Source: Phototrophicaceae bacterium
GTDB taxonomy: Bacteria > Chloroflexota > Anaerolineae > Aggregatilineales > Phototrophicaceae
Reading direction: 5' to 3'
Assembly (NCBI GenBank): GCA_965223515.1
Contig: CBDCWK010000001.1
Location: forward strand, 788,835 to 852,834
Length of the DNA: 64,000 nt
Shown here: piece after piece, positions 23,230 through 55,810 of the stretch
How positions within the stretch are numbered: the first letter of the stretch is position 1
Layout of the letters: each line of letters begins with the position of its first letter
Made by a program: the position numbers and the translations under genes
The notes under the pieces: model-generated
Seen by the model: the letters and a program-made list of their open reading frames with translations, nothing else
Database searches by the model: none
What the model was told of the DNA's origin: nothing

Positions 23230-24273
23230 ATGGACGCACTCATCAAATACGGACGCGAAGACAAAAATGTCGAACTGCGCGATATCCCGCAGCCGCCCGA
23301 TCCCGCCGCCGAGCAAGTCATTGTGGAAGTTGGCGCCGCCGGCATCTGCGGCAGCGACCTGCACATGTGGCGCGATCATCAAAGCTGGGCGATAAAGTTG
23401 CCACTCGTGCTGGGCCACGAATTCTGCGGCACGGTCGCCGCCGTCGGCTCGGCGGTGGAGAACTTCAAGGTCGGCGATCGCGTGGCCGTGGAGACAGCGG
23501 CAGAAGTCTGCGGCACTTGCGCTTATTGCCACTCCGGCGACTACAATCAGTGCCCGCATCGCCTTGGCTACGGCGCGCTTTACGATGGCGCCTTCACCCA
23601 ATACGTCAACGCCCGGCAGCAAATCTTGCATCACATCCCCGCGAATGTCACCTTCGAACAAGCCTCACTCACCGAGCCGATTTGCGTCGCCTACAACGCC
23701 TTGGTCGAAAAGACGCCGAAGGTGAGCCCCGGCGATACCGTGGTGATTCAAGGACCCGGTCCCATCGGCATGATGGCGCTGCTTGTGGCCAAGCTGCGCG
23801 GCGCCTCCGAAATCGTCATGCTGGGAACACGCCACGACCAGCAGCGGCTGGCAGTCGCCGCTGAGATCGGCGCAACTCAAACGCATAACATCGACGCAGA
23901 CGACCCGCTGGAGCTGATTCGCTCGCTCGGCGATGGCTACGGCGCCGACCTGATCGTCGATTGCAGCGGCGTCAGCATCGCCTTGAAATCGGCAATGGAG
24001 ATGGTGCGTCCCAACGGCACGATCACCAAGATCGGCTGGGGACCACAACCGCTGAACTTCAACCTTGATCCACTAGTGCAAAAAGCGGTCACTCTGCAAG
24101 GCTGCTTCAGCCACTTGTATTCCACCTGGGAACGCGCGCTGGCGCTGCTTTCTACCAGACAGATCGACCTCGCGCCCATCATAGGCGGCGTCTATCCGCT
24201 CGCGGACTGGGTCGAGGCATTCGAGCAGATGGAAGCCGGCAACAACGTCAAATCGGTTCTGGTGCCGGATTAG
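23230..24273 (+). CDS. Zn-dependent medium-chain alcohol/polyol dehydrogenase
   Basis: GICGSDLH, GHEFCG, structural zinc cysteines CGTCAYCHSGDYNQC, GPGPIG Rossmann motif. Start at ORF Met 49. Confidence 0.9.
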   Translation: MDALIKYGREDKNVELRDIPQPPDPAAEQVIVEVGAAGICGSDLHMWRDHQSWAIKLPLVLGHEFCGTVAAVGSAVENFKVGDRVAVETAAEVCGTCAYCHSGDYNQCPHRLGYGALYDGAFTQYVNARQQILHHIPANVTFEQASLTEPICVAYNALVEKTPKVSPGDTVVIQGPGPIGMMALLVAKLRGASEIVMLGTRHDQQRLAVAAEIGATQTHNIDADDPLELIRSLGDGYGADLIVDCSGVSIALKSAMEMVRPNGTITKIGWGPQPLNFNLDPLVQKAVTLQGCFSHLYSTWERALALLSTRQIDLAPIIGGVYPLADWVEAFEQMEAGNNVKSVLVPD

Positions 24274-24282
24274 GAGAAGAAG

Positions 24283-24951
24283 TTGGACGCAAAAATTCAA
24301 ATATCAATTGATGTCATCGACCTGCAGGAAGCGCTTGACCTCGCCCATGCTTCGGTCAAAGCCGGCGTGGACTGGCTCGAGGTGGGCACGCCACTCCTAC
24401 TGTCAGAGGGTCTGCACGCCGTCCACGCCTTCCGTAACGCTTTCCCTGACACGCCCATCGTCGTCGACCTCAAGACCATGGATGGCGCCGGACTGGAAGC
24501 TGAAATGATGTTCAAAGCCGGCGGCGATATGGTGGTCGTCATGGGACAAGCGCATGACGCGAGCATCATCGAGCAAGTCAAAATGGCGCAGCGCTACGGC
24601 AAGAAAGTCATGTGTGATGTAATGCTCTGCCCCGACAAAGCCGGGCGGGCGCGGCAAGCCCAGGACATGGGCGTCGACTATATCATCGTGCATACCGGCT
24701 TTGACGAACGCAATATGATCCCGGGGCTAAGCCCGCTCAATGATCTACAGGATGTACTCGACGCAGTCGATATTCCTGTGCAGGCGGTTGGCGGCTTGAG
24801 CGTACCGCAAGCGATACAGACCCTGGAGCTGGGCGCCGAGATCGTCGTCTTCGGCGCGCCCCTGGTGATCAGCGGGCAGGAATTCAAAGCAGCCGATCCC
24901 AATTTCGACCGTCAACTGCGCGAGATCGTCAAGGACGTACGCGGAGCGTAG
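24283..24951 (+). CDS. 3-hexulose-6-phosphate synthase / 3-keto-L-gulonate-6-phosphate decarboxylase family (OMPDC suprafamily)
   Basis: QISIDVIDLQEALDLA...VDWLEVGTPL...VVDLKTMDGAG matches the HPS/UlaD N-terminal signature. TTG start. Confidence 0.8.
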   Translation: MDAKIQISIDVIDLQEALDLAHASVKAGVDWLEVGTPLLLSEGLHAVHAFRNAFPDTPIVVDLKTMDGAGLEAEMMFKAGGDMVVVMGQAHDASIIEQVKMAQRYGKKVMCDVMLCPDKAGRARQAQDMGVDYIIVHTGFDERNMIPGLSPLNDLQDVLDAVDIPVQAVGGLSVPQAIQTLELGAEIVVFGAPLVISGQEFKAADPNFDRQLREIVKDVRGA

Positions 24952-25096
24952 CTTTCTCTCCAAAACGGTGTTGTAGGTAACGAAGTAGTCTGAAATCTCT
25001 CGCTTTGTCGCCCACAGAGCCACATATTGAGATACAGCGACAATACGCGTATACTTGCTTGCTTGAAATCAGCAAGGACCGAACGGAATCACTAGT

Positions 25097-26659
25097 ATGT
25101 TTGTGAAAGACCCCAATTTCGGCGACATCGTCGACTTCGACCAACTGCGCTTGTCGATCCATCATCTTTATGATGCGCTGTTGCCTGATTTCGATATGCA
25201 CAAATCGCTGCAAGTGGGAAACGCGCTCTATGGCGATGAACCGGATCTGATGATCGCCGCCGGCGCCAGCATGCTCGCCTGGATGACCATCATCGCCGCC
25301 GGAGAGGACGAAATCGCCGAGGAACTCAAGGACAGCCTGTTCACCTTGGGCTGGACGGAAGAAGAAATCGGCTCCGACTTGCTGAGCGCGTCCACGGTAG
25401 CCACTCCGCGGAACGATGATCCCGCTTGTGTCGATTACCATCTCAAGGGGCGCAAGTGGCTAATCAACAATTCCTACCACGCCGACTATCACACGATTGT
25501 CGCCAAAACCGACCCTAATTCCAGCGGGCCGCGCTCTCTCTCGATCTTTCTGGTGCCGCAGAGCAGTTGCAAAAACTGGGAACGACTGGAGACCCACGTC
25601 CTGCGCCGCATGGTGCTGACCAGCTTCGATATTGACGGACCGGGGCGCCTGCTCGGCAAGGTCGGGCACGGCTTGCAAATCTTGCAGCGCATGGCGATGC
25701 CCAGCAAGTATCAGTGCGCTTATGTAGGCGTCAAGCTGCTCAATGAAGCCATACCAGCCAGCATTGAACACCTCTCTAAGAAGCGCATCTTCAATGAAAA
25801 CCCGATTAACTTTAGCAACGTCCTGCGGCAGATGTACAACCTCGTGTTGCAAGGCGCCGTGCTGAATTTCATTTATTATCGCGCGCTGGCATTTAGCGCG
25901 GGGAATTTCCTGCAATTTCACGGCGTGATGCTCAAGTCCTGGCTGCTGCTGCGCGCCAATGAATTGCTTGGGCAGAACCTCTTGGTGGTTGGCTCGAAAG
26001 GCTTCCTGGCGGAATCAGTCATCGGCCGCAACGTCATCGATTCTTTCGTCCTGCCTGTTTTTGACGGCCATTACACCATCAACACCTTGATGACAGCGAA
26101 GCACGTCAAACGCTACCTGGGGGCGGAACGTCGCGCCGATGTGGCTGAACGTATGGCGATCTTGCGCAAAGGAATTGCCTCTTCGCGCTCGGCCGATCAA
26201 ATTCGCGCCCATTCACGCAAGCTGCGCAATCCCGACTTTTTCGACTACGCCCAATACATTGAAGATCTCGAGTTGCCGATTAAACTGGATGCTCGTGGCC
26301 TGGTCGCGGCTATGCAATCGCTGGCAGATGAACTCAACAGACGCGAACTGGCAAAAGATCCGGAACATCGATACAAGCTGGGAATGATGCTGCATTGGAT
26401 GGAGGCGCTGCTGGCCGCTTGCGAAATGTGGAAAGCCACTGAAGAAAAGGAATTCTTGAATGCCGTGATCATGCAATACAACGCCTTCGTCAACCAGTTC
26501 AACCAGATCATCAGCGAGAGCGCCCTGCAAACGCCTTTCTTGTCGCTCATGCGGCAACAGCCATTGCGCTGTGTCGAAGCGCCGCGCCAATTCCTGCTGC
26601 GCCTGTATGACCTCGCCCAGCAATTCGCTGCCCAGCCCGAGCCGATGGCCGCGAAGTAG
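25097..26659 (+). CDS. Divergent acyl-CoA dehydrogenase-fold protein with a ~170-aa C-terminal extension (paralog 1)
   Basis: ACAD middle-domain pattern WTEEEIGSDLLS...GRKWLINNSYHADYHTIVAKTD...SIFLVP. The C-terminal helix VFDGHYTINTL occupies the position of IYEGTNEI. Confidence 0.7.
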   Translation: MFVKDPNFGDIVDFDQLRLSIHHLYDALLPDFDMHKSLQVGNALYGDEPDLMIAAGASMLAWMTIIAAGEDEIAEELKDSLFTLGWTEEEIGSDLLSASTVATPRNDDPACVDYHLKGRKWLINNSYHADYHTIVAKTDPNSSGPRSLSIFLVPQSSCKNWERLETHVLRRMVLTSFDIDGPGRLLGKVGHGLQILQRMAMPSKYQCAYVGVKLLNEAIPASIEHLSKKRIFNENPINFSNVLRQMYNLVLQGAVLNFIYYRALAFSAGNFLQFHGVMLKSWLLLRANELLGQNLLVVGSKGFLAESVIGRNVIDSFVLPVFDGHYTINTLMTAKHVKRYLGAERRADVAERMAILRKGIASSRSADQIRAHSRKLRNPDFFDYAQYIEDLELPIKLDARGLVAAMQSLADELNRRELAKDPEHRYKLGMMLHWMEALLAACEMWKATEEKEFLNAVIMQYNAFVNQFNQIISESALQTPFLSLMRQQPLRCVEAPRQFLLRLYDLAQQFAAQPEPMAAK

Positions 26660-26712
26660 GGAAAGAATGTCACCACAGAGGACACAGAAACACAGAGACA
26701 GCGAGTTGGATA

Positions 26713-27699
26713 GTGGCAAAGAATAGAAACCTCCACCAAGCGAAGTCCAACAAAAAAGACGAGTTCTACACCCAGCTTGTCGATATTGAAAATGAACTCC
26801 GGCATTACACCGATCACTTTCGCGGGAAGGTCGTCTACTGCAACTGCGATGACCCGCGAGTGAGCAATTTCTTTCATTACTTCGCCTACAACTTCCGCGT
26901 ACTCGGGCTCAAGAAGTTGATTACGACATGCTACAGAAGTCAGCAAATGGATTTATTCAGTAAGCATGATACAGAGCGGGCAATATGGCTGGAATACGAT
27001 GGGACACAGAACGAGACCGGTGTGCCGTCACTCGAAGACATCGGCATACACTACCTTGAAGGCGATGGCGATTTTAGAAGCGCCGAATGTATCGAGCTGC
27101 TCAAACAAGCCGATATTGTGGTGACAAACCCGCCCTTTTCGCTGTTCCGTGAATATGTGGCGCAGTTGATTGAGTACGATAAGAAGTTTCTGATTGTCGG
27201 TCATCAGAACGCGATTACTTATAAGGAGATATTCCCCCTGATTAAAGACAACAAATTGTGGCTTGGGATTACTCCTCGTGGAAAGGACATGTTGTTTGAT
27301 GTGCCGAAAGATTACGCAAAAGAATTGGTCGCAACCAAAAAAGAGGGCAGCGCTTATAGAATTGTAGATGGCGTTGTATATGGCAGGCTTGGAAGCGCTA
27401 GCTGGTACACCAACCTTGACTACCGGCAAAGGCACGAAGAACTGATTTTATACAAACGCTACTCGCCAGAGGAATATCCGAAGTACGACAACTATGATGC
27501 GATTGAAGTGTCAAAGGTCGCGCACATTCCCAAGGACTGGGACGGCGCGATGGGCGTGCCGATTACCTTCTTGAACAAACACAATCCAGAGCAATTTGAG
27601 ATAATTAGGTTCAGAAAAGGAGATGATGGAAGAGATTTGCGTGTAAATGGAAAAGAGCCTTACTTCCGCATCGTTATTCGGCATAGGAGAGGGGCGTGA
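26713..27699 (+). CDS. N6-adenine DNA methyltransferase, EcoRI-methylase-like family
   Basis: The N-terminal KKDEFYTQLVDIENEL block and catalytic motif IV VVTNPPFSLFREY. Visibly AT-richer than its flanks. Confidence 0.8.
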   Translation: MAKNRNLHQAKSNKKDEFYTQLVDIENELRHYTDHFRGKVVYCNCDDPRVSNFFHYFAYNFRVLGLKKLITTCYRSQQMDLFSKHDTERAIWLEYDGTQNETGVPSLEDIGIHYLEGDGDFRSAECIELLKQADIVVTNPPFSLFREYVAQLIEYDKKFLIVGHQNAITYKEIFPLIKDNKLWLGITPRGKDMLFDVPKDYAKELVATKKEGSAYRIVDGVVYGRLGSASWYTNLDYRQRHEELILYKRYSPEEYPKYDNYDAIEVSKVAHIPKDWDGAMGVPITFLNKHNPEQFEIIRFRKGDDGRDLRVNGKEPYFRIVIRHRRGA

Positions 27700-27703
27700 T
27701 GGG

Positions 27704-29050
27704 ATGAGCGGTAGAATGGATAAGAAGGGGATGTGGTGGGTTAAGGGAAACGAGCATAAGAAGTTTACAGGCATATTGACGTATGGTGATGGGTATGTCC
27801 CAACACTAGAGATATTTCTGAAGGAATATGATTTTGACAAACAATCAGTTCCCAATAATTCTACAATCTATGGAGACGTATTTGGGGAATCCAAGAAAAT
27901 CCAGGCAGTTACATTATTAGAATGCAGACCAAAAAATAGTCTAGGAATGCCCGATGTAGGCGCTTTTATTTATAAACAAGAATTTGTATATGCTGACTGC
28001 GTTGCTATTGGTATGCTGCTTGATGATGACGAGATAGCACAAGTGAAATCTCCCCAGAGCATACATTTGACTTGCCCCGGCCTAGATGAATACATCGTGG
28101 TAAACGCGATAAAGCATCAATGGAAAGACAACATTCCAGAGGGCAGGGCTTACCGCGTCAGCGATCTTGAAACAATTGTGTATACCCCGCCCGAACCCAT
28201 CGCAATTGAAATAGATATTGGAACAATCACAATATATCTAGGGCCATCAAGCACAGGCAAAGACATATCATCAAGGCATTTCATTCACGTCAGTTTTGAG
28301 AATCCTACGCCAGAAGCTGAGGTCAACTCACTGATTTATTCACAGTTATTATCTTTTCTTTCGATAATGAGCGGGCGCAGAGAATATATTGAAACTCATA
28401 CAATTACCATAAACTCGAAGCAAACACGCTCTGATTCATTGAGTATAGAACTCAATTATGGGCATATTGCGCACTCGACGCAACAAACAAAGTATTCCAT
28501 ACTGCAATCGCTCTTGCTTGGCAGAGAAGGGAATGTGAGCAAGTTCGCAACTTTGTTTCCAAAGTGGCGCGAGGATTTCGCATTCGTTGAAGGTTTGGCT
28601 TTCCAGTATATGCAAATGGTTGATGCACACCGGTTTACCAAAACCGATCTGATACACGCATTTTCTTTCATTGAAGAATATGTAGTGGACAGAGACATTA
28701 AGGCAGATAGGTCTAATATGGCTGGTATCCTAAGTGGGATCATTGAATTTATCGCCAGCTATTTTTCTTGCAGTAACAAATATACACAACATTTCCAAAG
28801 GGAATCAAAAGGACAAGAACATATTGCCAAGCAGCTTGCACACTTTCGCAACAAACATACGCATCAAAAATCAAATGAAGTGTGCCTTTATTCTATCCAA
28901 GAAGTTTATGCGTATATCTCTGTAATCATGCGTTCGATATTCCTGATAGAGATGGGATGTCCTGCTGACAAGATAGACAACATGGTATCGCATTGGGAGC
29001 TATGGCATCAGCTGCCTGAGTGTCAGCACACGGAAGGTAATAACCGATGA
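27704..29050 (+). CDS. ApeA-like protein with a C-terminal HEPN (Rx4H) domain
   Basis: C-terminal LAHFRNKHTHQ contains the RNxxxH HEPN motif. The N-terminus GMWWVKGNEHKKFTGILTYGDGYVPTLEIF resembles the ApeA N-terminal domain. The start 4 nt after the MTase stop is preceded by AGGAGAGGGG. This is the most AT-rich gene in the window by eye. Confidence 0.6.
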   Translation: MSGRMDKKGMWWVKGNEHKKFTGILTYGDGYVPTLEIFLKEYDFDKQSVPNNSTIYGDVFGESKKIQAVTLLECRPKNSLGMPDVGAFIYKQEFVYADCVAIGMLLDDDEIAQVKSPQSIHLTCPGLDEYIVVNAIKHQWKDNIPEGRAYRVSDLETIVYTPPEPIAIEIDIGTITIYLGPSSTGKDISSRHFIHVSFENPTPEAEVNSLIYSQLLSFLSIMSGRREYIETHTITINSKQTRSDSLSIELNYGHIAHSTQQTKYSILQSLLLGREGNVSKFATLFPKWREDFAFVEGLAFQYMQMVDAHRFTKTDLIHAFSFIEEYVVDRDIKADRSNMAGILSGIIEFIASYFSCSNKYTQHFQRESKGQEHIAKQLAHFRNKHTHQKSNEVCLYSIQEVYAYISVIMRSIFLIEMGCPADKIDNMVSHWELWHQLPECQHTEGNNR

Positions 29051-30141
29051 AAATCGAGCTGCTAGACCTCACAGTGCGCGACCTCGTCGCCGGCTACCAT
29101 GACGACGGCGATGGCGGCGTGGTCGGCTACGGCGGGGCGCTCGATATTCGCCCGCCCTTCCAGCGCGAGTTTATCTACGATGACAAAGAGCGCAAAGCCG
29201 TCATCAACTCTATTCTCAAGGGCTTCCCGCTCAATGTCATGTACTGGTCAGACCGCGAGGACGGCACTTACGAAATTATTGACGGTCAGCAGCGCACTAT
29301 CTCCATCGCTCAATATGTAGCGGAAAAACCGGGCTTCTCGTTCAAGGGGCTGGGCTTTGACAATCAGCAATCGGACATCAAGAAGCGGATACTCAATTAC
29401 AAGCTGATGGTCTATGTGTGTACTGGCACAGATAGCGAGAAGCTGGAATGGTTTGAGATCATCAATATCGCGGGGAAACAGCTATCGAGTCAAGAATTGC
29501 TCAATGCGATTTACTCCGGCTCCTGGGTTACAGACGCCAAGCGCTATTTCAGCAAGCGCGGTTGCCCGGCGTATCAAATTGGCAGGGACTATCTAAGCAA
29601 TTCGGTGAAGGTGGATCGGCAACATTATTTGGAAACAGCGATCAAGTGGATTAGCGAGAATAATATCAGAGAGTATATGCGGAATCACCAGCACGATGAT
29701 AGTGCCGAGCCGCTCTGGGAATACTTTCAATCTGTTATTGACTGGATAAAAGCTGCTTTCACAGAATACAGGTCGTCTATGAAGGGCGTGGACTGGGGCA
29801 GCCTGTACAACGCCTACAAAGACGCGAAACTCGACCCCGTAAAGATCGAAGCCGAAGTTGAAGAGTTGCTTGATGACGAGGACGTTCAGCGAGAATCAGG
29901 CATATACCCGTATATCCTCACTTGCGAAGAAAAGCATCTTAACCTTCGTGCCTTTGACGCCCGCATGAAGCGAAGAGTCTACCGGAAACAAGACGGCATC
30001 TGCGCTATCTGTAAAGAGGAATTTCACATATCCGATATGGAAGCGGACCATATCACCCCTTGGTCCGAAGGCGGCAAAACCAGCGCAGACAACTGCCAGA
30101 TGCTCTGCCGGAAATGCAACCGCGAGAAATCCGCGAAGTAA
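29047..30141 (+). CDS. DUF262 (ParB/GmrSD N-terminal-like) protein with a C-terminal HNH nuclease
   Basis: RPPFQREFIY and IIDGQQRT motifs (DUF262). The C-terminus is CAICK...EADHITPWSEGGKTSADNCQMLCRKCNREKS (HNH). ATGA overlap with the upstream gene. Confidence 0.85.
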   Translation: MKIELLDLTVRDLVAGYHDDGDGGVVGYGGALDIRPPFQREFIYDDKERKAVINSILKGFPLNVMYWSDREDGTYEIIDGQQRTISIAQYVAEKPGFSFKGLGFDNQQSDIKKRILNYKLMVYVCTGTDSEKLEWFEIINIAGKQLSSQELLNAIYSGSWVTDAKRYFSKRGCPAYQIGRDYLSNSVKVDRQHYLETAIKWISENNIREYMRNHQHDDSAEPLWEYFQSVIDWIKAAFTEYRSSMKGVDWGSLYNAYKDAKLDPVKIEAEVEELLDDEDVQRESGIYPYILTCEEKHLNLRAFDARMKRRVYRKQDGICAICKEEFHISDMEADHITPWSEGGKTSADNCQMLCRKCNREKSAK

Positions 30142-30170
30142 GCGCAACCGATACAGGACACCCCGCCTTT

Positions 30171-31715
30171 ATGGATATCGTTAAAGACGCGCAATTTGGA
30201 GACATCCTGGATTACCAGCGATTGCGCGACGGCATGATGGATGTGCTGGACAATGTCTACCCCACATTCAATTTGATGGGCTCGATGTTGCAAGCCACCA
30301 AGCACTTTCGCAATGACCCCAGCTATATGACCGCCTGCGCAGCCAGCGGCTTGGCATACATGATGTTGGTCGCCGCCGAGGAAGACGAACTGGCGGCGCA
30401 ACTCAAAGGCAAGATCTTCACCCTGGGCTGGACTGAACAGCATACCGGCAGCGACTTGCTCAGCGTCAAGACGCGCGCCACACCCATGTCGGATGACCCG
30501 GACGAAAAGCGCTTTCATATCAAAGGGCAAAAGTGGCTGATAAACAATTCATACCATGCCGATTATCACTCGGTTGTCGCCAAGGTCGATCCCTCTGCCG
30601 ATGGTCCGCGGTCAATATCCATATTTGTCGTGCCACATAGCAGCACCAAAAACTGGCAGCGGCTGGAGACGCATGTGCTGCGCACGATGGTGCTCACAAA
30701 ATTCGACATCGACGGTCCCGGAATCCTAATCGGACAAGTGGGTCGCGGACTGCAGATTCTGCAGCGCATGGCGCTCCCGGCAAAATATCACTGCGCTTAT
30801 ATGGGTGTGAAGATGGTGGAAGATTCGCTGCCTGCCGCCATAGAGCATTTGTCCAGCAAGCATATTTTCGGCGCCAACCCCATACAGTTCAGCAATGTCT
30901 TCCGCCAGCTGTACAATCTGGTGCAGCAAGCCGCGCTGATCAATTTTTCCTTCTTCCGCGCCCTGGCATTCAGCGACAGTCCTTTTCTGCAATTCCACGG
31001 CATCATGTTGAAATCCTGGCTGCTGCTCAAGTGCAACGAAGTCTTGTCTCAGAATCTGCTGGTCACTGGATCCAAGGGATTCCTCAAAGAATCCAACATC
31101 GGCGGCAACGCCATCGATTCCTTTGTCTATCCCGTCTTTGATGGCCATTACACCCTCAACACGCTGCTCACTTACAAACATATGCGCCGCTACCTGGACG
31201 CAACCGCGAAAGGCGATATCGAGGAGCGGACTCGTATTCTGAGCCAGAATGCCTACGTGCCGCTGGAAGGCAAGCAGATCCTCAACGACAGCCGCGAAAC
31301 CCGTCGTCCGCCCTTCTTCGATTATGCTGATTACATCGCCCGCTGCGCCCTGCCGATTGACTTGAACGCCAAGCGGCTCGTCAAGGCGAGCGCCGACATC
31401 ATGGATGCGATTCAAGACCGCGGCGACACCAACGAGCCCGAATATCGTTACAAGATCGGCATGCTGGTGCATAACCTCGAAGCGCTGCTTTCGGCGGTTG
31501 AGCTATGGAAAGTAACCGCCAACGACGACTACCTCAACGCCGTCATCATGCAATACAACGATGTCGGCAAACTAATCAATCGCATCATCAGCGAGGGCGC
31601 CTTGCCGGTCGAATTCATCGAGCCGCTGCGTCAACTGCCCCTGCCGAAGGTGAAAGATCCGCGCGGCTTCCTGCTCGGCTTGCTGGATGTGAAGGGGCAG
31701 ATACATGCGACCTGA
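30171..31715 (+). CDS. Divergent acyl-CoA dehydrogenase-fold protein (paralog 2 of 25097..26659)
   Basis: Collinear with paralog 1 over the full length (WTEQHTGSDLLS, GQKWLINNSYHADYHSVVAKVD, VFDGHYTLNTL). Roughly 55-60% identity by eye. Start at ORF Met 38, aligned to the paralog 1 start. Confidence 0.7.
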   Translation: MDIVKDAQFGDILDYQRLRDGMMDVLDNVYPTFNLMGSMLQATKHFRNDPSYMTACAASGLAYMMLVAAEEDELAAQLKGKIFTLGWTEQHTGSDLLSVKTRATPMSDDPDEKRFHIKGQKWLINNSYHADYHSVVAKVDPSADGPRSISIFVVPHSSTKNWQRLETHVLRTMVLTKFDIDGPGILIGQVGRGLQILQRMALPAKYHCAYMGVKMVEDSLPAAIEHLSSKHIFGANPIQFSNVFRQLYNLVQQAALINFSFFRALAFSDSPFLQFHGIMLKSWLLLKCNEVLSQNLLVTGSKGFLKESNIGGNAIDSFVYPVFDGHYTLNTLLTYKHMRRYLDATAKGDIEERTRILSQNAYVPLEGKQILNDSRETRRPPFFDYADYIARCALPIDLNAKRLVKASADIMDAIQDRGDTNEPEYRYKIGMLVHNLEALLSAVELWKVTANDDYLNAVIMQYNDVGKLINRIISEGALPVEFIEPLRQLPLPKVKDPRGFLLGLLDVKGQIHAT

Positions 31716-31963
31716 ACTTTTGGTCGCCCATTCGGATTGATGACCTGCTACCCTCGCAGCAACGCGCATATAGGCTCAACCTTTTGCCCAGCTTATTTGC
31801 ACAAAAAAACATTCTGCTGTGCCAACGCAAATGATACATTGCAATCCTCGAAAATCCCCGTCAACACTGGGATTCGGCATTTGCACAAGCTAAAATCCTA
31901 TTGCGCGATCCGCGCAAACGCGCCAAAATTTCGCCACATACTCGACCGGTGAAAGACACTCAT

Positions 31964-33106
31964 ATGAACGAACTCACTATCCTCCTCTCCGACCTGGTCG
32001 CCATCGACTCGGTCAACCCCGACCTCGTGCCCGGCGGCGCGGGCGAAGCGCGCATCGCAAACTACATCGCCGACTGGGGACGCGAGAACAGCTTGGAAAC
32101 CCACGTCCAGCAAGCCGGACTCGGCCGCCCGAATGTCATCTTGATCGCGCGGGGAAGCGGTGGCGGCAAGTCGCTGATGCTCAACGCGCATACCGATGTG
32201 GTCGGCGTCGAAGGCATGGACGCCCCCTTCGAGCCGAAGGTTCGCGACGGCAGGATGCACGGGCGCGGCGCCTACGATATGAAGAGTGGTCTGGCAGCCT
32301 GCATGCTGGCGATCAAGGCAGCGCGCGCTATGGACCTCGCCGGCGATGTTATGCTAAGCGCCGTCGTCGATGAAGAATACGGCAGCATCGGTACCGAGGC
32401 CTTGCTGGCGGAGTGGCAGCGCTGGCCCGCCGACGCCGTACTCAGCGCCGAGCCGACCGAGCTGGCACTCAGCATCGCCCATCGCGGCTTCGTCTGGCTG
32501 GAGATCGAGACCTTCGGCCTGGCGGCGCACGGCTCCCGCCCAGAACTTGGCATTGACGCCATCGCCAAGATGGGCGCCGTCCTGGTCGCGCTTGATGCCC
32601 ATGATCGAGCGATGAGCGCGGCGCCGACGCATGACCTGCTGGGCAGCGGCTCCCTGCACGCCTCGCTTATAAATGGCGGCGAGGAGATCTCAATGTACCC
32701 CGCCCATTGCCAGTTGCTGGTCGAGCGGCGCACCCTCCCCGGCGAGACTTTGGCGAGCGTCGAGGCAGAAGCACAAGTCATCCTCGATGCGATTGTTGCG
32801 GCTGATCCCGACTTCAAGGCGCAGGTCAAAGCCACCTTCGCCCGCGGCGCCTATAGCATTGAGGCGGCGCATCCCCTGGTGCGGCAGCTCAAGCGGGTCG
32901 CCCAAGCGCGACTCGGCGCCGATGTACCGCTGATCGGCAGCAGTTGGTGGATGGATTCGGCGCTATTCGGCGAAAAGGGCATTCCGACAGTCGTCTTGGG
33001 ACCAAAGGGGACTGGCGCCCATGCCCGTGAGGAGTGGGTTGATCTGGCATCAGTCGAGCAGTGCCTTGCGATCTACACCGATCTCATCGCCGAATTCTGC
33101 CTATAG
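31964..33106 (+). CDS. M20 family metallopeptidase/deacylase (ArgE/DapE-like)
   Basis: LVAIDSVNP, NAHTDVV, GRGAYDMKSG, DEEYGS and HAREEW motifs. Confidence 0.85.
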   Translation: MNELTILLSDLVAIDSVNPDLVPGGAGEARIANYIADWGRENSLETHVQQAGLGRPNVILIARGSGGGKSLMLNAHTDVVGVEGMDAPFEPKVRDGRMHGRGAYDMKSGLAACMLAIKAARAMDLAGDVMLSAVVDEEYGSIGTEALLAEWQRWPADAVLSAEPTELALSIAHRGFVWLEIETFGLAAHGSRPELGIDAIAKMGAVLVALDAHDRAMSAAPTHDLLGSGSLHASLINGGEEISMYPAHCQLLVERRTLPGETLASVEAEAQVILDAIVAADPDFKAQVKATFARGAYSIEAAHPLVRQLKRVAQARLGADVPLIGSSWWMDSALFGEKGIPTVVLGPKGTGAHAREEWVDLASVEQCLAIYTDLIAEFCL

Positions 33107-53380: not shown

Positions 53381-54235
53381 CTAATCGTCAGCGAGTTCAT
53401 ACTGTGCCGGGCTAAGGAAGCCCAAGGCAGAATGCCGTCGCTGCCGGTTGTACCAAATCTCTATGAAATCGAACACAGCTTGCCGAGCCTCTTGAATTGT
53501 AGCAAAGCGTATAGCTGAACATTCCGTTTTCAGAGTCGCGAAGAAACTCTCCATCATGGCATTGTCATAGCAGTTTCCGGCAGCGCTCATGCTGGCTTGG
53601 ATACGATTGTCCTGCAGGAGTTGGCGGTATTGCTTGCTGGTATATTGGCTGCCGCGATCACTATGATGGACCAAGTCGCGGTTAATACGCCGCTGTCCCA
53701 AAGCCATTTTCAGGGCAGCCATCGCCAGTTGGCTGTCCGCCTTCCGCTTCATAGCCCAGCCCACAATCCTGCGCGAATATGTGTCTAATACCACCGCCAA
53801 GTGGAGCCATCCTTCACCGGTTCTGATCTGCACGATATCGGCCAGCCACTTCTGGTTGACGCGCTGAGCTGCGAAGTCCTGCTGCAGTAGGTTCGCTGCC
53901 GCTAAACCGGATGTATGCGATCGCCTACGCTCCCCGTAGCCTTGTTTGCGCCGCGCCCGTATGCCATCCAGCCGCATCAAACTCGCAACCCGCTTGCGGC
54001 TGACTCGCCAACCCGCTGCCCATAACTCCGCGTGGATCCGTGGACTGCCGTAGCGCTGGCGACTGCGCTCGAAGATGTCGCGAATCCGCCGCAAAAGCGC
54101 TTCGTTGTCCCGCTCCCGCTGGCTGACAGCCCGCTTCAACCAAGCATAGAAGCCACTGCTTGATACTTCCAACACCCGGCACATCCGCCGTACGCTGAAT
54201 TGTGCTTGGTGACTCTCAATAAATCGAAACTTCAT
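53381..54235 (-). CDS. IS3-family transposase OrfB (rve/DDE integrase core)
   Basis: WLADIVQI (D), HSDRGSQYTS (D), CYDNAMMESFFATLK (E) motifs. Confidence 0.95.
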   Translation of the reverse strand: MKFRFIESHQAQFSVRRMCRVLEVSSSGFYAWLKRAVSQRERDNEALLRRIRDIFERSRQRYGSPRIHAELWAAGWRVSRKRVASLMRLDGIRARRKQGYGERRRSHTSGLAAANLLQQDFAAQRVNQKWLADIVQIRTGEGWLHLAVVLDTYSRRIVGWAMKRKADSQLAMAALKMALGQRRINRDLVHHSDRGSQYTSKQYRQLLQDNRIQASMSAAGNCYDNAMMESFFATLKTECSAIRFATIQEARQAVFDFIEIWYNRQRRHSALGFLSPAQYELADD

Positions 54236-54722: not shown

Positions 54723-55379
54723 CTAGTCGTTCGTTGACGGAGCGGTTTCGGTTGGAGCCCCGCATAACATTTCGAAGCCTCGCTTAATCGAACTAGAGTA
54801 ACAAAACCACCAATAGAACGATACAAATGCAATGATTACGACAGTGGAACCTAGATTAAGGAATCCGAGGAGATTTTCTCGCGCCACAGTAATTGGCCTT
54901 ATTTGCCAAAACTTGTAAAAAGCAATAAGCAGCAATCCAAGAGGAATAAAGATCTTATACAGAAGGTCGTACAGATTTAGAATCGTAGGGTATTTCTCAG
55001 CGTAGGCTTTACCTTCAGTTTTGATCGGAACTCCGAATTTACATCGGATCTTTTCTTCGAGAAAGTTAGTATCATTGTAAGATCTCTCGATACCGACAGC
55101 AATTTGAAGATACCGCGTTATGAGTAACATAAAGATAAATAGTAAAATAGTTTCGAGTATAGGGAAGTCGTCTGCGATCGTCGTGCCAAGAAATCGCTCG
55201 GCCAATCCGGCAAATATGCTGAAAACCAACTTAGGATGCAACAGTTGCAATAGGATAAGGACGACAACGACTAGAATGAAGAGAAGATACCGATAGCGAC
55301 TACGAATTTGACTGCGACGGTTGGCAACAACGTCTTTGTAGTGAGCGTACAGTATCTCTCGTTTTTTCTCGTCTGACAT
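54723..55379 (-). CDS. Four-TM membrane protein of unknown family, partner of the TIR-like gene
   Basis: 218 aa with hydrophobic helices at about aa 31-47, 74-95, 143-158 and 172-193. It starts 5 nt after the TIR gene stop. AT-rich. Confidence 0.6.
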   Translation of the reverse strand: MSDEKKREILYAHYKDVVANRRSQIRSRYRYLLFILVVVVLILLQLLHPKLVFSIFAGLAERFLGTTIADDFPILETILLFIFMLLITRYLQIAVGIERSYNDTNFLEEKIRCKFGVPIKTEGKAYAEKYPTILNLYDLLYKIFIPLGLLLIAFYKFWQIRPITVARENLLGFLNLGSTVVIIAFVSFYWWFCYSSSIKRGFEMLCGAPTETAPSTND

Positions 55380-55384
55380 ATCAA

Positions 55385-55810
55385 CTAGGCGTCATTGAGA
55401 GCTTTGGTGATAGCCTCTTCTGTGAAACTCATTGCCCAGCTAGCCCCAGATTCGAGTAACTCCTCTGGGCTCTCATAACTGCGTTTAATCTTCACACCTA
55501 CCAACTTTTTACCATGTTCCTTGCTCTTGGCAACTTCAAAGTTGATCCAATTCCTGTAACCAATTTCCCGCCAGTCTGGATGACGCTTGTTTGCGTTCTT
55601 GCCGACGATGACCAAGGTGTGCGACGCGCTTTTGATTCGTTTCGTCAGGTTGCTCTTGATGACGGCAATACAGTCTGACTGGATCTCCGGAGGAGTACGG
55701 TCGACTATCTCGAAATCAAAGTCCAGGTTATTGCTCCACGCATTGAGCAAATACTTATAGTGCTTGTCATCTTCGTAGTCGAAACTGATGAAAACCTTCT
55801 TCTTTGCCAT
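55385..55810 (-). CDS. ThsB-like TIR-domain protein (DUF1863/PF08937-type)
   Basis: KKVFISFDYEDDKHYKYLLNAW... and TLVIVGKNANKRHPDWREIGYRNWINFEVAKSKEHGKKLVGVKI parallel Bacillus ThsB (KRVFFSFHYQD...NHW; CVLIGSQTFNRRWVRYEIMKSIEKGNKIIGIHI, from memory). Confidence 0.8.
   Translation of the reverse strand: MAKKKVFISFDYEDDKHYKYLLNAWSNNLDFDFEIVDRTPPEIQSDCIAVIKSNLTKRIKSASHTLVIVGKNANKRHPDWREIGYRNWINFEVAKSKEHGKKLVGVKIKRSYESPEELLESGASWAMSFTEEAITKALNDA

Follow-up and report, generated by a model that had tools for sequence, protein, structure and literature searches.

An ApeA-like gene at the methyltransferase/nuclease junction of a probable EcoRI-family/DUF262-HNH restriction-modification operon in a Phototrophicaceae bacterium

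The window analyzed here, 64,000 nucleotides (nt) of a Phototrophicaceae bacterium (Chloroflexota), contains three co-directional open reading frames (ORFs) on the + strand at positions 26713-30141, which encode an EcoRI-family methyltransferase (M), a protein related to the ribonuclease (RNase) ApeA (the ApeA-like protein), and a nuclease with a DUF262 and an HNH domain (R). This cassette is probably a canonical two-gene restriction-modification (R-M) operon with M first, which carries a self-sufficient ApeA-like RNase gene in the slot at its M/R junction; it would then be a modular stack and not an interdependent trio. The comparisons demonstrated the domain identities of the three proteins, the linkage of M and R across phyla, the junctional placement of the ApeA-like gene, the interchangeability of the cargo at this site, and the survival of the ApeA-like gene after loss of its partners in cis. 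A first-pass annotation of this region had proposed either a stack of independent defenses or an integrated system. The former is preferred over the latter, because the slot is empty or holds other cargo in relatives, the ApeA-like gene survives the loss of M and R, and a sister clade of the ApeA-like protein occurs alone.

M (26713..27699, + strand) is a 328-amino-acid (aa) N6-adenine DNA methyltransferase of the EcoRI family, translated from a GTG start that aligns with the ATG of the M gene in L006 (L followed by a number denotes a comparison locus). It matched PF13651 at 5.3e-137 (457 bits, cut-off 26.4) over aa 6-305 and the PADLOC model MTase_II PDLC03297 at 1.3e-129 over its full length, in agreement with the earlier reading of an EcoRI-methylase-like enzyme. 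The NPPF motif lies at aa 139-142 (nt 27127-27138), and the S-adenosylmethionine-binding motif I, VVYCNCDD, lies ahead of it at aa 40-47; this order of motifs makes M a predicted gamma-class enzyme. R (29047..30141, + strand, 364 aa) joins a DUF262 domain of the ParB/GmrS type (PF03235, 1.6e-20), with the DGQQR motif at aa 79-83 (nt 29281-29295), to a zinc-ribbon HNH domain (PF01844, 9.2e-15) at aa 319-363 (nt 30001-30135), in which the signature CxxC...DH...CxxC spans aa 319-357. As had been annotated, R had no match to DUF1524 (EHxxP), and its C-terminus is a PF01844/PF14279 HNH domain with CxxC...CxxC. The DGQQR motif, H335, N349, and the cysteines were invariant or nearly so among 14 diverse R homologs. 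The PADLOC model REase_II PDLC03418 matched R at 3.7e-126 (protein 5-364 against model 5-372 of 372), and there were weak PADLOC matches to the mREase_IV, SspE, and HEC models. The R family comprises at least 8000 clusters at 90% identity.

The pairing of a DUF262 nuclease with a methyltransferase had been considered unexpected. Judged from gene neighborhoods, it is instead the rule for this family, in which the DUF262-HNH nuclease and the EcoRI-family methyltransferase form an obligate pair, because PADLOC type II models match both proteins from end to end, plasmids carry the genes next to each other, and the same is seen in viral sequences. IMG/VR holds 233 viral stretches that encode an R relative; 80 of these loci were fetched, and among the 78 that had upstream sequence and were thus scorable, M stood directly 5′ of R on the same strand in all 78. 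In 75 of them there was no space for an extra gene between M and R, so that inserts at this junction are rare outside the Chloroflexota (3/78 viral loci). On plasmids of Pseudomonadota, Actinomycetota, and Bacillota, an EcoRI-family methyltransferase gene is followed at once by the DUF262 gene, and the two often overlap by 4 nt. Plasmids of Sulfitobacter, Gordonia, Enterococcus, and Macrococcoides carry M and R side by side or overlapping, and on a Bacteroidota plasmid M was found with R by tblastn only, in two frames. RefSeq labels the two proteins "adenine-specific methyltransferase EcoRI family protein" and "DUF262 domain-containing protein", and neither a characterized enzyme name, a REBASE name, nor a recognition site for this R-M family was found in the searchable literature. 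Among the Chloroflexota loci there was no intact R without M, while M without R was common, an asymmetry that would be expected if M protects against R. The pairing with a methyltransferase likewise implies that cutting by R would be blocked by methylation and not dependent on it. The cassette in the window has the M-first order, the strand, and the end-to-end matches of the PADLOC type II module (PDLC03297/PDLC03418). In the canonical form, however, the stop codon of M overlaps the start codon of R, whereas in the window a 1.35-kb gene stands between them.

In the window, 4 nt (27700-27703) lie between the TGA stop codon of M (27697-27699) and the ATG of the ApeA-like gene, and the sequence ATGA (29047-29050) contains both the ApeA-like stop and the R start; the gap and the overlap were read directly, and the tight packing described in the first-pass annotation was thus found as stated. 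A Shine-Dalgarno-like GGAGAGGGG run lies in the 3′ end of M, 7 nt 5′ of the ApeA-like ATG. The same type of junction between the M stop and the cargo, which in the window (27688..27703, + strand) consists of GGAGAGGGG, the TGA stop, and the 4-nt gap, was found in L006, L007, L010, and L018. In the loci of its clade, the ApeA-like gene was always placed between the M stop and the R start. The 5′ unit of R (29030..29142, + strand), which includes about 17 nt 5′ of the ATG and the first ~32 codons, is present in the window as a single copy; there is no R 5′ duplicate and only a single cargo gene. The 53-nt leader of M (26660..26712, + strand) contains ACAGAG-type repeats and is conserved in L005 and L006. 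A promoter and terminator scan placed nothing in this leader (13 sites compared to 8.2 ± 2.9 in shuffles, no excess), and an Rfam scan of 24000-33000 gave no match. Because no separate promoter was detected, expression of the cargo is probably tied to the operon, possibly with read-through from the upstream gene ACAD1.

The contents of the slot were compared among close Chloroflexota relatives of R, which share 83-87% identity. In L023, M and R overlap and the slot is empty, while in L108, which has the same chromosomal context, the slot is filled, and the order is M, a 120-aa ORF, a 43-aa hybrid ORF, a 115-aa ORF, and R. The hybrid ORF (L108:5356-5487) is a fusion of the start of R and the end of M, R(1-20)::M(304-326). 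In L024 and L025, M is followed by four cargo modules, the last of which stands directly before the full-length R; the cargo includes two unknown proteins, a 174-aa protein, a NucC-like PD-DExK DUF6602 protein (PADLOC 2.6e-21), and a Phd/DUF2281-like protein with a transmembrane (TM)/coiled-coil protein. The first three modules of L024 are each followed by a 113-nt copy of the R 5′ unit, there are four copies of this unit in all, the copies are 73-81% identical to each other, and two of them continue into M 3′-end sequence. The slots of L107 and L109 hold an insertion sequence (IS) plus several small ORFs, with R 5′ remnants detected in L109. The arrays, which are marked by R 5′ remnants and R5′::M3′ hybrids, extend from M to R over L024:208-6095, L108:3970-7095, L109:1508-7080, and L107:2600-7095. 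In L002 and L004, a gene for a ~100-aa TM/coiled-coil protein stands between the ApeA-like gene and R, together with an R 5′ duplication of 74 nt in L002 and 119 nt in L004.

This ~100-aa cargo, with one TM helix and a coiled coil, recurs at L002:8480-8990, L004:8500-8900, L109:4599-4898, L024:4645-4956, and L107:5645-5956, often just 5′ of R. The L024 and L107 proteins are 92% identical, and the coiled coils in L002, L004, and L109 are encoded by 21-nt repeats of the type ERFNT(I/V)N. A 62-aa TM protein is common to L107 and L109 (94% identical). By eye, a 163-aa cargo ORF at L107:4650-5141 has an IS200/RAYT-like signature, "PNHFHGLI ... YYDHIVRNE".

The position of the hybrid junctions is variable (R codon 20-37 to M codon 304-322), and neither an integrase gene nor attC-like inverted repeats were found at the arrays, where the repeat search returned direct R 5′ repeats only. 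Because of these variable junctions and the lack of an integrase or inverted repeats, an origin by site-specific recombination is not favored; the arrays appear to have arisen by unequal, illegitimate, or short-homology recombination, or from tandem R-M units in which internal R...M segments were deleted. Furuta et al. (2010, PMC2853133) described insertion with long target duplication at R-M loci, and each added cargo in the relatives is similarly accompanied by a duplicated R 5′ segment of 74-119 nt. The arrays also resemble integron cassette arrays in that they consist of small cargo genes. They differ from both in having no integrase, no attC-like inverted repeat, and variable junctions. 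An incomplete literature search returned no description of a recurrent cargo slot with R5′::M3′ scars at this junction. It is conceivable, although we think it unlikely, that the junction is an integrase-free capture platform, in which [M3′-cargo-R5′] modules are swapped between alleles and stacked by recombination between the conserved M and R ends, perhaps via circular intermediates. The captured genes would then be expressed as part of the R-M operon, which might also gate them. Should the slot be a true site of capture, its small cargo genes would be inexpensive candidates for new defense or toxin-antitoxin functions, among them the TM/coiled-coil proteins, the NucC-like DUF6602 protein, and several proteins without a known domain.

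The cargo gene in the window (27704..29050, + strand) encodes a 448-aa protein, a minimal member of the ApeA family, with a beta-rich ApeA_NTD1 domain at aa 7-252 and a helical C-terminal domain, predicted to be HEPN, at aa ~270-440. The match to PF18862 (ApeA_NTD1) was 1.1e-16 (61.6 bits, cut-off 25.5), and all 23 clade members matched this family. In PADLOC, the sole match was to the candidate family PDC-S58 (4.3e-12), with none to an ApeA model at E ≤ 0.01. The annotated RNxxxH motif was recovered as RNKHTH, R382 to H387 (aa 382-387; 28847..28864, + strand). R382 and H387 are invariant in 23 homologs, and 6 of the 23 homologs match PF18739 (HEPN_Apea) at E ≤ 0.01 (best 4.3e-6); together these support the prediction of a HEPN domain, even though PF18739 stayed below its cut-off with the window protein itself. 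In an AlphaFold2 model, the N-terminal half is beta-rich and the C-terminal domain is helical, the latter with high confidence. A sequence search of the PDB gave no match at E ≤ 1, and a Foldseek search of the PDB with the model gave nothing at E ≤ 0.001, the best being kinases with a TM-score below 0.2, which is noise.

The ApeA-like family is small. Its clade comprises 58 clusters, the profile gave 19 HMMER matches in 1.84e9 representatives and 10 loci in 185,579 species genomes, and a metagenome scan with the profile yielded 2 loci, both duplicates of L004. There was no match on plasmids, and an exact look-up of the window protein found none on record. Where named, the clade members come from Chloroflexota metagenome-assembled genomes (Phototrophicaceae, Anaerolineae, Aggregatilineales). 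We regard the ApeA-like gene as the insertion because its clade is tiny and absent from plasmids, in contrast to the very common M-R module. The sister clade (~425 aa, 17 clusters, Chloroflexi where named) sits alone beside a SIS-domain gene in a housekeeping context, outside this R-M system.

The three-gene order recurs in other genomes. Complete trios were found in L002, L004 (also seen as L014/L015), and L010, and in L018/L019 the contig ends after M, the ApeA-like gene, and 108 codons of R. Comparison of the flanks distinguished up to eight chromosomal contexts for the ApeA-like loci: the ACAD site shared by the window, L004, L005, and L006; those of L001/L016, L010/L018, and L007/L009; and four singletons. 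In many of these loci the R-M genes have decayed. R was deleted with at least four different scars, in L001/L016/L003, L006, L005, and L008, and M was lost in L001, L016, L005, and L017. In L001 (8330-8470), L016 (8340-8482), and L003 (8315-8450), R codon ~24 is joined to codon ~339 at a GGCGGC microhomology, and the fusion in L006 (8325-8430) is similar but lies in the ACAD site and is therefore an independent event. L005 keeps R codons 1-44 plus remnants of the M leader and M 3′ end, L008 retains 25 R codons, and L017 has no trace of M or R beside the ApeA-like gene. The GGCGGC type of scar occurs in at least two chromosomal contexts and looks like a deletion hot spot.

The ApeA-like gene has persisted throughout this series. 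All 13 uninterrupted ORFs are 436-448 aa long, and the Rx4H motif was retained in each of the 13 loci examined; in L009 the gene is broken by a ~1-kb IS insertion with a 326-aa transposase-like ORF (L009:5469-7774). The ratio of nonsynonymous to synonymous divergence (dN/dS) was 0.19-0.43 with the scarred and solo copies included, and between such copies it was 0.43 (L001-L016), 0.20 (L001-L003), and 0.22 (L005-L006). The intact solo-type copies of L001, L016, L017, and L005 are thus under purifying selection, with an M-R pair in trans being possible. Because R and M were lost repeatedly while the ORFs remained intact and under purifying selection, the ApeA-like protein appears to be autonomous in cis and to outlive both partners. 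The loci with an empty slot, one cargo gene, or several, and with R-M genes at different stages of decay, provide a natural experiment that shows the accretion of defense genes inside an operon and indicates that the ApeA-like RNase can outlive the R-M system that carries it.

Under the modular reading, M would methylate an adenine-containing site and thereby mark the host DNA, and R, through its DUF262 nucleoside triphosphatase (NTPase) and HNH domains, would cut unmarked incoming DNA as a first layer of defense. The ApeA-like protein would add a second layer at the RNA level as a self-contained homodimeric RNase whose N-terminal domain senses infection, by analogy with characterized ApeA. 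Its gene would ride on the transcription and translational coupling of the operon with no dependence of the product on the R-M proteins.

Several observations weigh against this reading. The match of the window protein to PF18739 (6.9e-4, 20.5 bits) is under the 24.4-bit gathering cut-off. Expression of the ApeA-like gene is probably tied to the operon, as the scan gave no separate promoter for it. Among the 14 clade loci, window included, 12 keep M, R, or remnants of them, so the history of the clade is tied to this R-M system and a functional tie may exist. In addition, at least one genome whose ApeA-like gene is "solo" in its locus, that of L001, has an intact M-R pair 250 kb away (L023), and M-R could possibly control the ApeA-like protein in trans. 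The comparison loci are all metagenome-assembled genomes, in which assembly errors are possible. Finally, the view that methylation would block R rather than trigger it, like any view of the recognition site, is drawn from gene linkage.

Some of these points are what would be expected if the RNase were held latent by M and/or R and freed when a phage inhibits or evades restriction, in the manner of PrrC, so that the three genes form one interdependent system. The position of the ApeA-like gene between M and R mirrors that of prrC in the EcoprrI hsd operon (PMC3710099), and the gene is tightly translationally coupled. The trio also occurs in several chromosomal contexts and hence moved or persisted as a unit, nearly the whole clade bears traces of this R-M system, and the L001 genome has its M-R copy in trans. 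We nevertheless consider such a guard arrangement unlikely, since the ApeA-like gene stayed intact and under purifying selection after deletion of R in cis, in at least four events, and of M. The same slot in relatives holds unrelated cargo or nothing, the sister clade is solo, characterized ApeA proteins act as single genes, and 75 of the 78 viral M-R pairs lack a partner gene between them. In terms of its parts, the EcoprrI type Ic operon is similar to the cassette in having a gene for a HEPN RNase, predicted in the case of the cassette, amid R-M genes and a two-layer logic of DNA and RNA defense. PrrC, however, is an anticodon nuclease that contains an ABC-ATPase domain and that the R-M complex keeps silent, whereas the window protein has no NTPase, its N-terminus is ApeA_NTD1, and the R-M system beside it is of the type II kind. 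The cis-loss data argue against dependence of the PrrC sort, with trans copies being possible.

A second alternative, which we judge improbable, is that three unrelated defense genes came to lie side by side by chance and that the M/R junction is nothing special. The GC content at third codon positions (GC3) differs among the three genes (0.57, 0.41, and 0.65), and clustering of defense genes is common. This explanation was largely refuted by the analysis of the junction, in which M and R were an obligate pair, every locus had its cargo precisely at the M-stop/R-start junction, and other cargo with R5′::M3′ scars occupied the same junction; moreover, the neighborhood is a housekeeping one and not a defense island. 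It is very improbable that R is a modification-dependent type IV, GmrSD-like nuclease and that M has another role, such as other marking or countering another system, for although DUF262 is best known from GmrSD, BrxU, and SspE and there are weak PADLOC matches to mREase_IV, SspE, and HEC, the M-first linkage with overlapping stop and start codons is strict across phyla, an intact R never occurs without M in the Chloroflexota loci whereas M can persist without R, R ends in a zinc-ribbon HNH domain and not in DUF1524, and the model that it matches end to end is one for type II REases.

R is similar to GmrSD, BrxU, and SspE in having an N-terminal DUF262 NTPase domain with DGQQR and a C-terminal His-Me-finger nuclease domain, and differs in that this nuclease domain is a classical zinc-ribbon HNH (PF01844) instead of DUF1524. 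In contrast to GmrSD, R is not stand-alone, as an EcoRI-family M always precedes it. On the modular reading, DUF262 nucleases would not all be modification-dependent, and the DUF262-HNH protein would be the restriction half of a very common, poorly named R-M family.

A close known counterpart of the cargo protein is ApeA. Ec1ApeA of E. coli NCTC8008 is a single-gene, homodimeric HEPN RNase that is activated through an N-terminal sensor and is non-abortive against RNA phages; its motif is RNKITH, and the R-to-A mutant loses defense (preprint 10.64898/2026.03.20.713152). The window protein is similar in its ApeA_NTD1 domain and predicted C-terminal HEPN domain on a single polypeptide, in its RNKHTH motif, and in that its relatives are also solo in some genomes. 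It differs in length (448 aa compared to ~600 aa for ApeA), in matching PDC-S58 without the ApeA model, and in its HEPN_Apea match under threshold.

The three-gene architecture had not been recognized as a described system, which held only in part. Anantharaman et al. (2013, PMC3710099) listed ApeA/BMEI1217 in epsilonproteobacteria, and other HEPN families, as embedded in R-M operons, along with HEPN genes that share operons with ParB-HNH nucleases and methylases. They also discussed the PrrC paradigm, so the general idea of a HEPN RNase gene inside an R-M operon was known. Their operons do not include this Chloroflexota trio of M.EcoRI-family methyltransferase, ApeA-like protein, and DUF262-HNH nuclease, or the behavior of the cargo slot. 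The trio is a new lineage-specific variant of a theme known since 2013.

The three genes had also been annotated as markedly AT-richer than their surroundings, and this was confirmed, though for R the difference is only slight. The GC content was 0.468 for M, 0.412 for the ApeA-like gene, and 0.511 for R. The two flanking genes have GC contents of 0.555 and 0.548, with a GC3 of 0.71-0.72, and the window as a whole has a GC content of 0.568. The lowest-GC 1347-bp window in all 64 kb begins at 27601. On these values, the AT-richness is strong in the ApeA-like gene, moderate in M, and slight in R. The GC3 of the ApeA-like gene was 0.38-0.49 in every locus, against 0.6-0.73 for M, 0.65-0.76 for R, and ~0.7 for the host flanks. 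Between the window and L005/L006, synonymous divergence (dS) was ~0.8-1.0 for the ApeA-like gene and the flanking genes alike, while the ApeA-like protein evolved ~3 times faster than its neighbors (dN of 0.23 compared to 0.07-0.10). Because GC3 is low in all loci although dS equals that of the flanks and is near saturation, and although the GC-rich neighbors have ameliorated, the low GC content is maintained and is not a mark of recent transfer. Swapping of alleles was rejected as the cause of the ApeA-like divergence in the ACAD locus, since dS is that of the flanks and only dN is raised. One possible reason for the persistent AT-richness is selection acting on toxic effector genes, through either their composition or their expression. 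Many other cargo genes of the slot are as AT-rich as the ApeA-like gene (GC3 0.35-0.47).

The palindrome statistics of the window did not yield a target site for M and R, as only GGCC, which is not an adenine site, and AGCT/AAGCTT stood out. GAATTC, the M.EcoRI site, is not notably avoided, with 19 occurrences in the window, and the statistics are uninformative for adenine-containing sites except AAGCTT. GGCC is strongly under-represented in the whole window (176 observed compared to 456 expected, z = -13), and AGCT (z = -5.6) and AAGCTT (1 observed compared to 14.8 expected) are also low. The depletion of these three sites suggests long-term pressure from other R-M systems.

The cassette takes up the entire space between two paralogous acyl-CoA-dehydrogenase-like genes that lie outside it, ACAD1 (25097..26659, + strand; PF02770, 1.3e-11; weak AidB/isovaleryl-CoA-dehydrogenase-like NCBIfam matches) and ACAD2 (30171..31715, + strand), which begins 29 nt 3′ of the R stop at the ATG that aligns with the N-terminus of ACAD1. 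The two are tandem, highly divergent AidB-like paralogs of ~520 aa with ~55% identity, and a flank of the ACAD1 type is also present in L004, L005, and L006. Further genes around the cassette are a sugar isomerase, an alcohol dehydrogenase, an M20 peptidase, ychF, and hemB-like ORFs, so the neighborhood is a housekeeping one with no defense island. A 10-nt direct repeat, CCGCGAAGTA, at the end of ACAD1 (26649-26658) and the end of R (30131-30140) was considered as an insertion scar and rejected as chance, because L004-L006 share the insertion but not the repeat, and AK* is simply how both proteins terminate. Genes of the ACAD family also adjoin M in L023, L108, and L024, probably by coincidence in the ACAD-rich Chloroflexota. 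GC-rich hairpin repeats of the repetitive extragenic palindromic (REP)-like type (CCCCCCGACTTTTCGGGGGG-type) flank the cassette of L004 (5700-5950 and 10020-10150) and replace M in L005 (6290-6900).

A second AT-rich patch of the window (GC ~0.41) lies at 54723-55810 (- strand) with 53381-54235 (- strand). It contains a gene for a 141-aa ThsB-like TIR protein (PF08937, 3e-12) followed by a 218-aa ORF without a Pfam match, and it adjoins an IS3-family (rve) transposase. This patch may be another small defense cassette.

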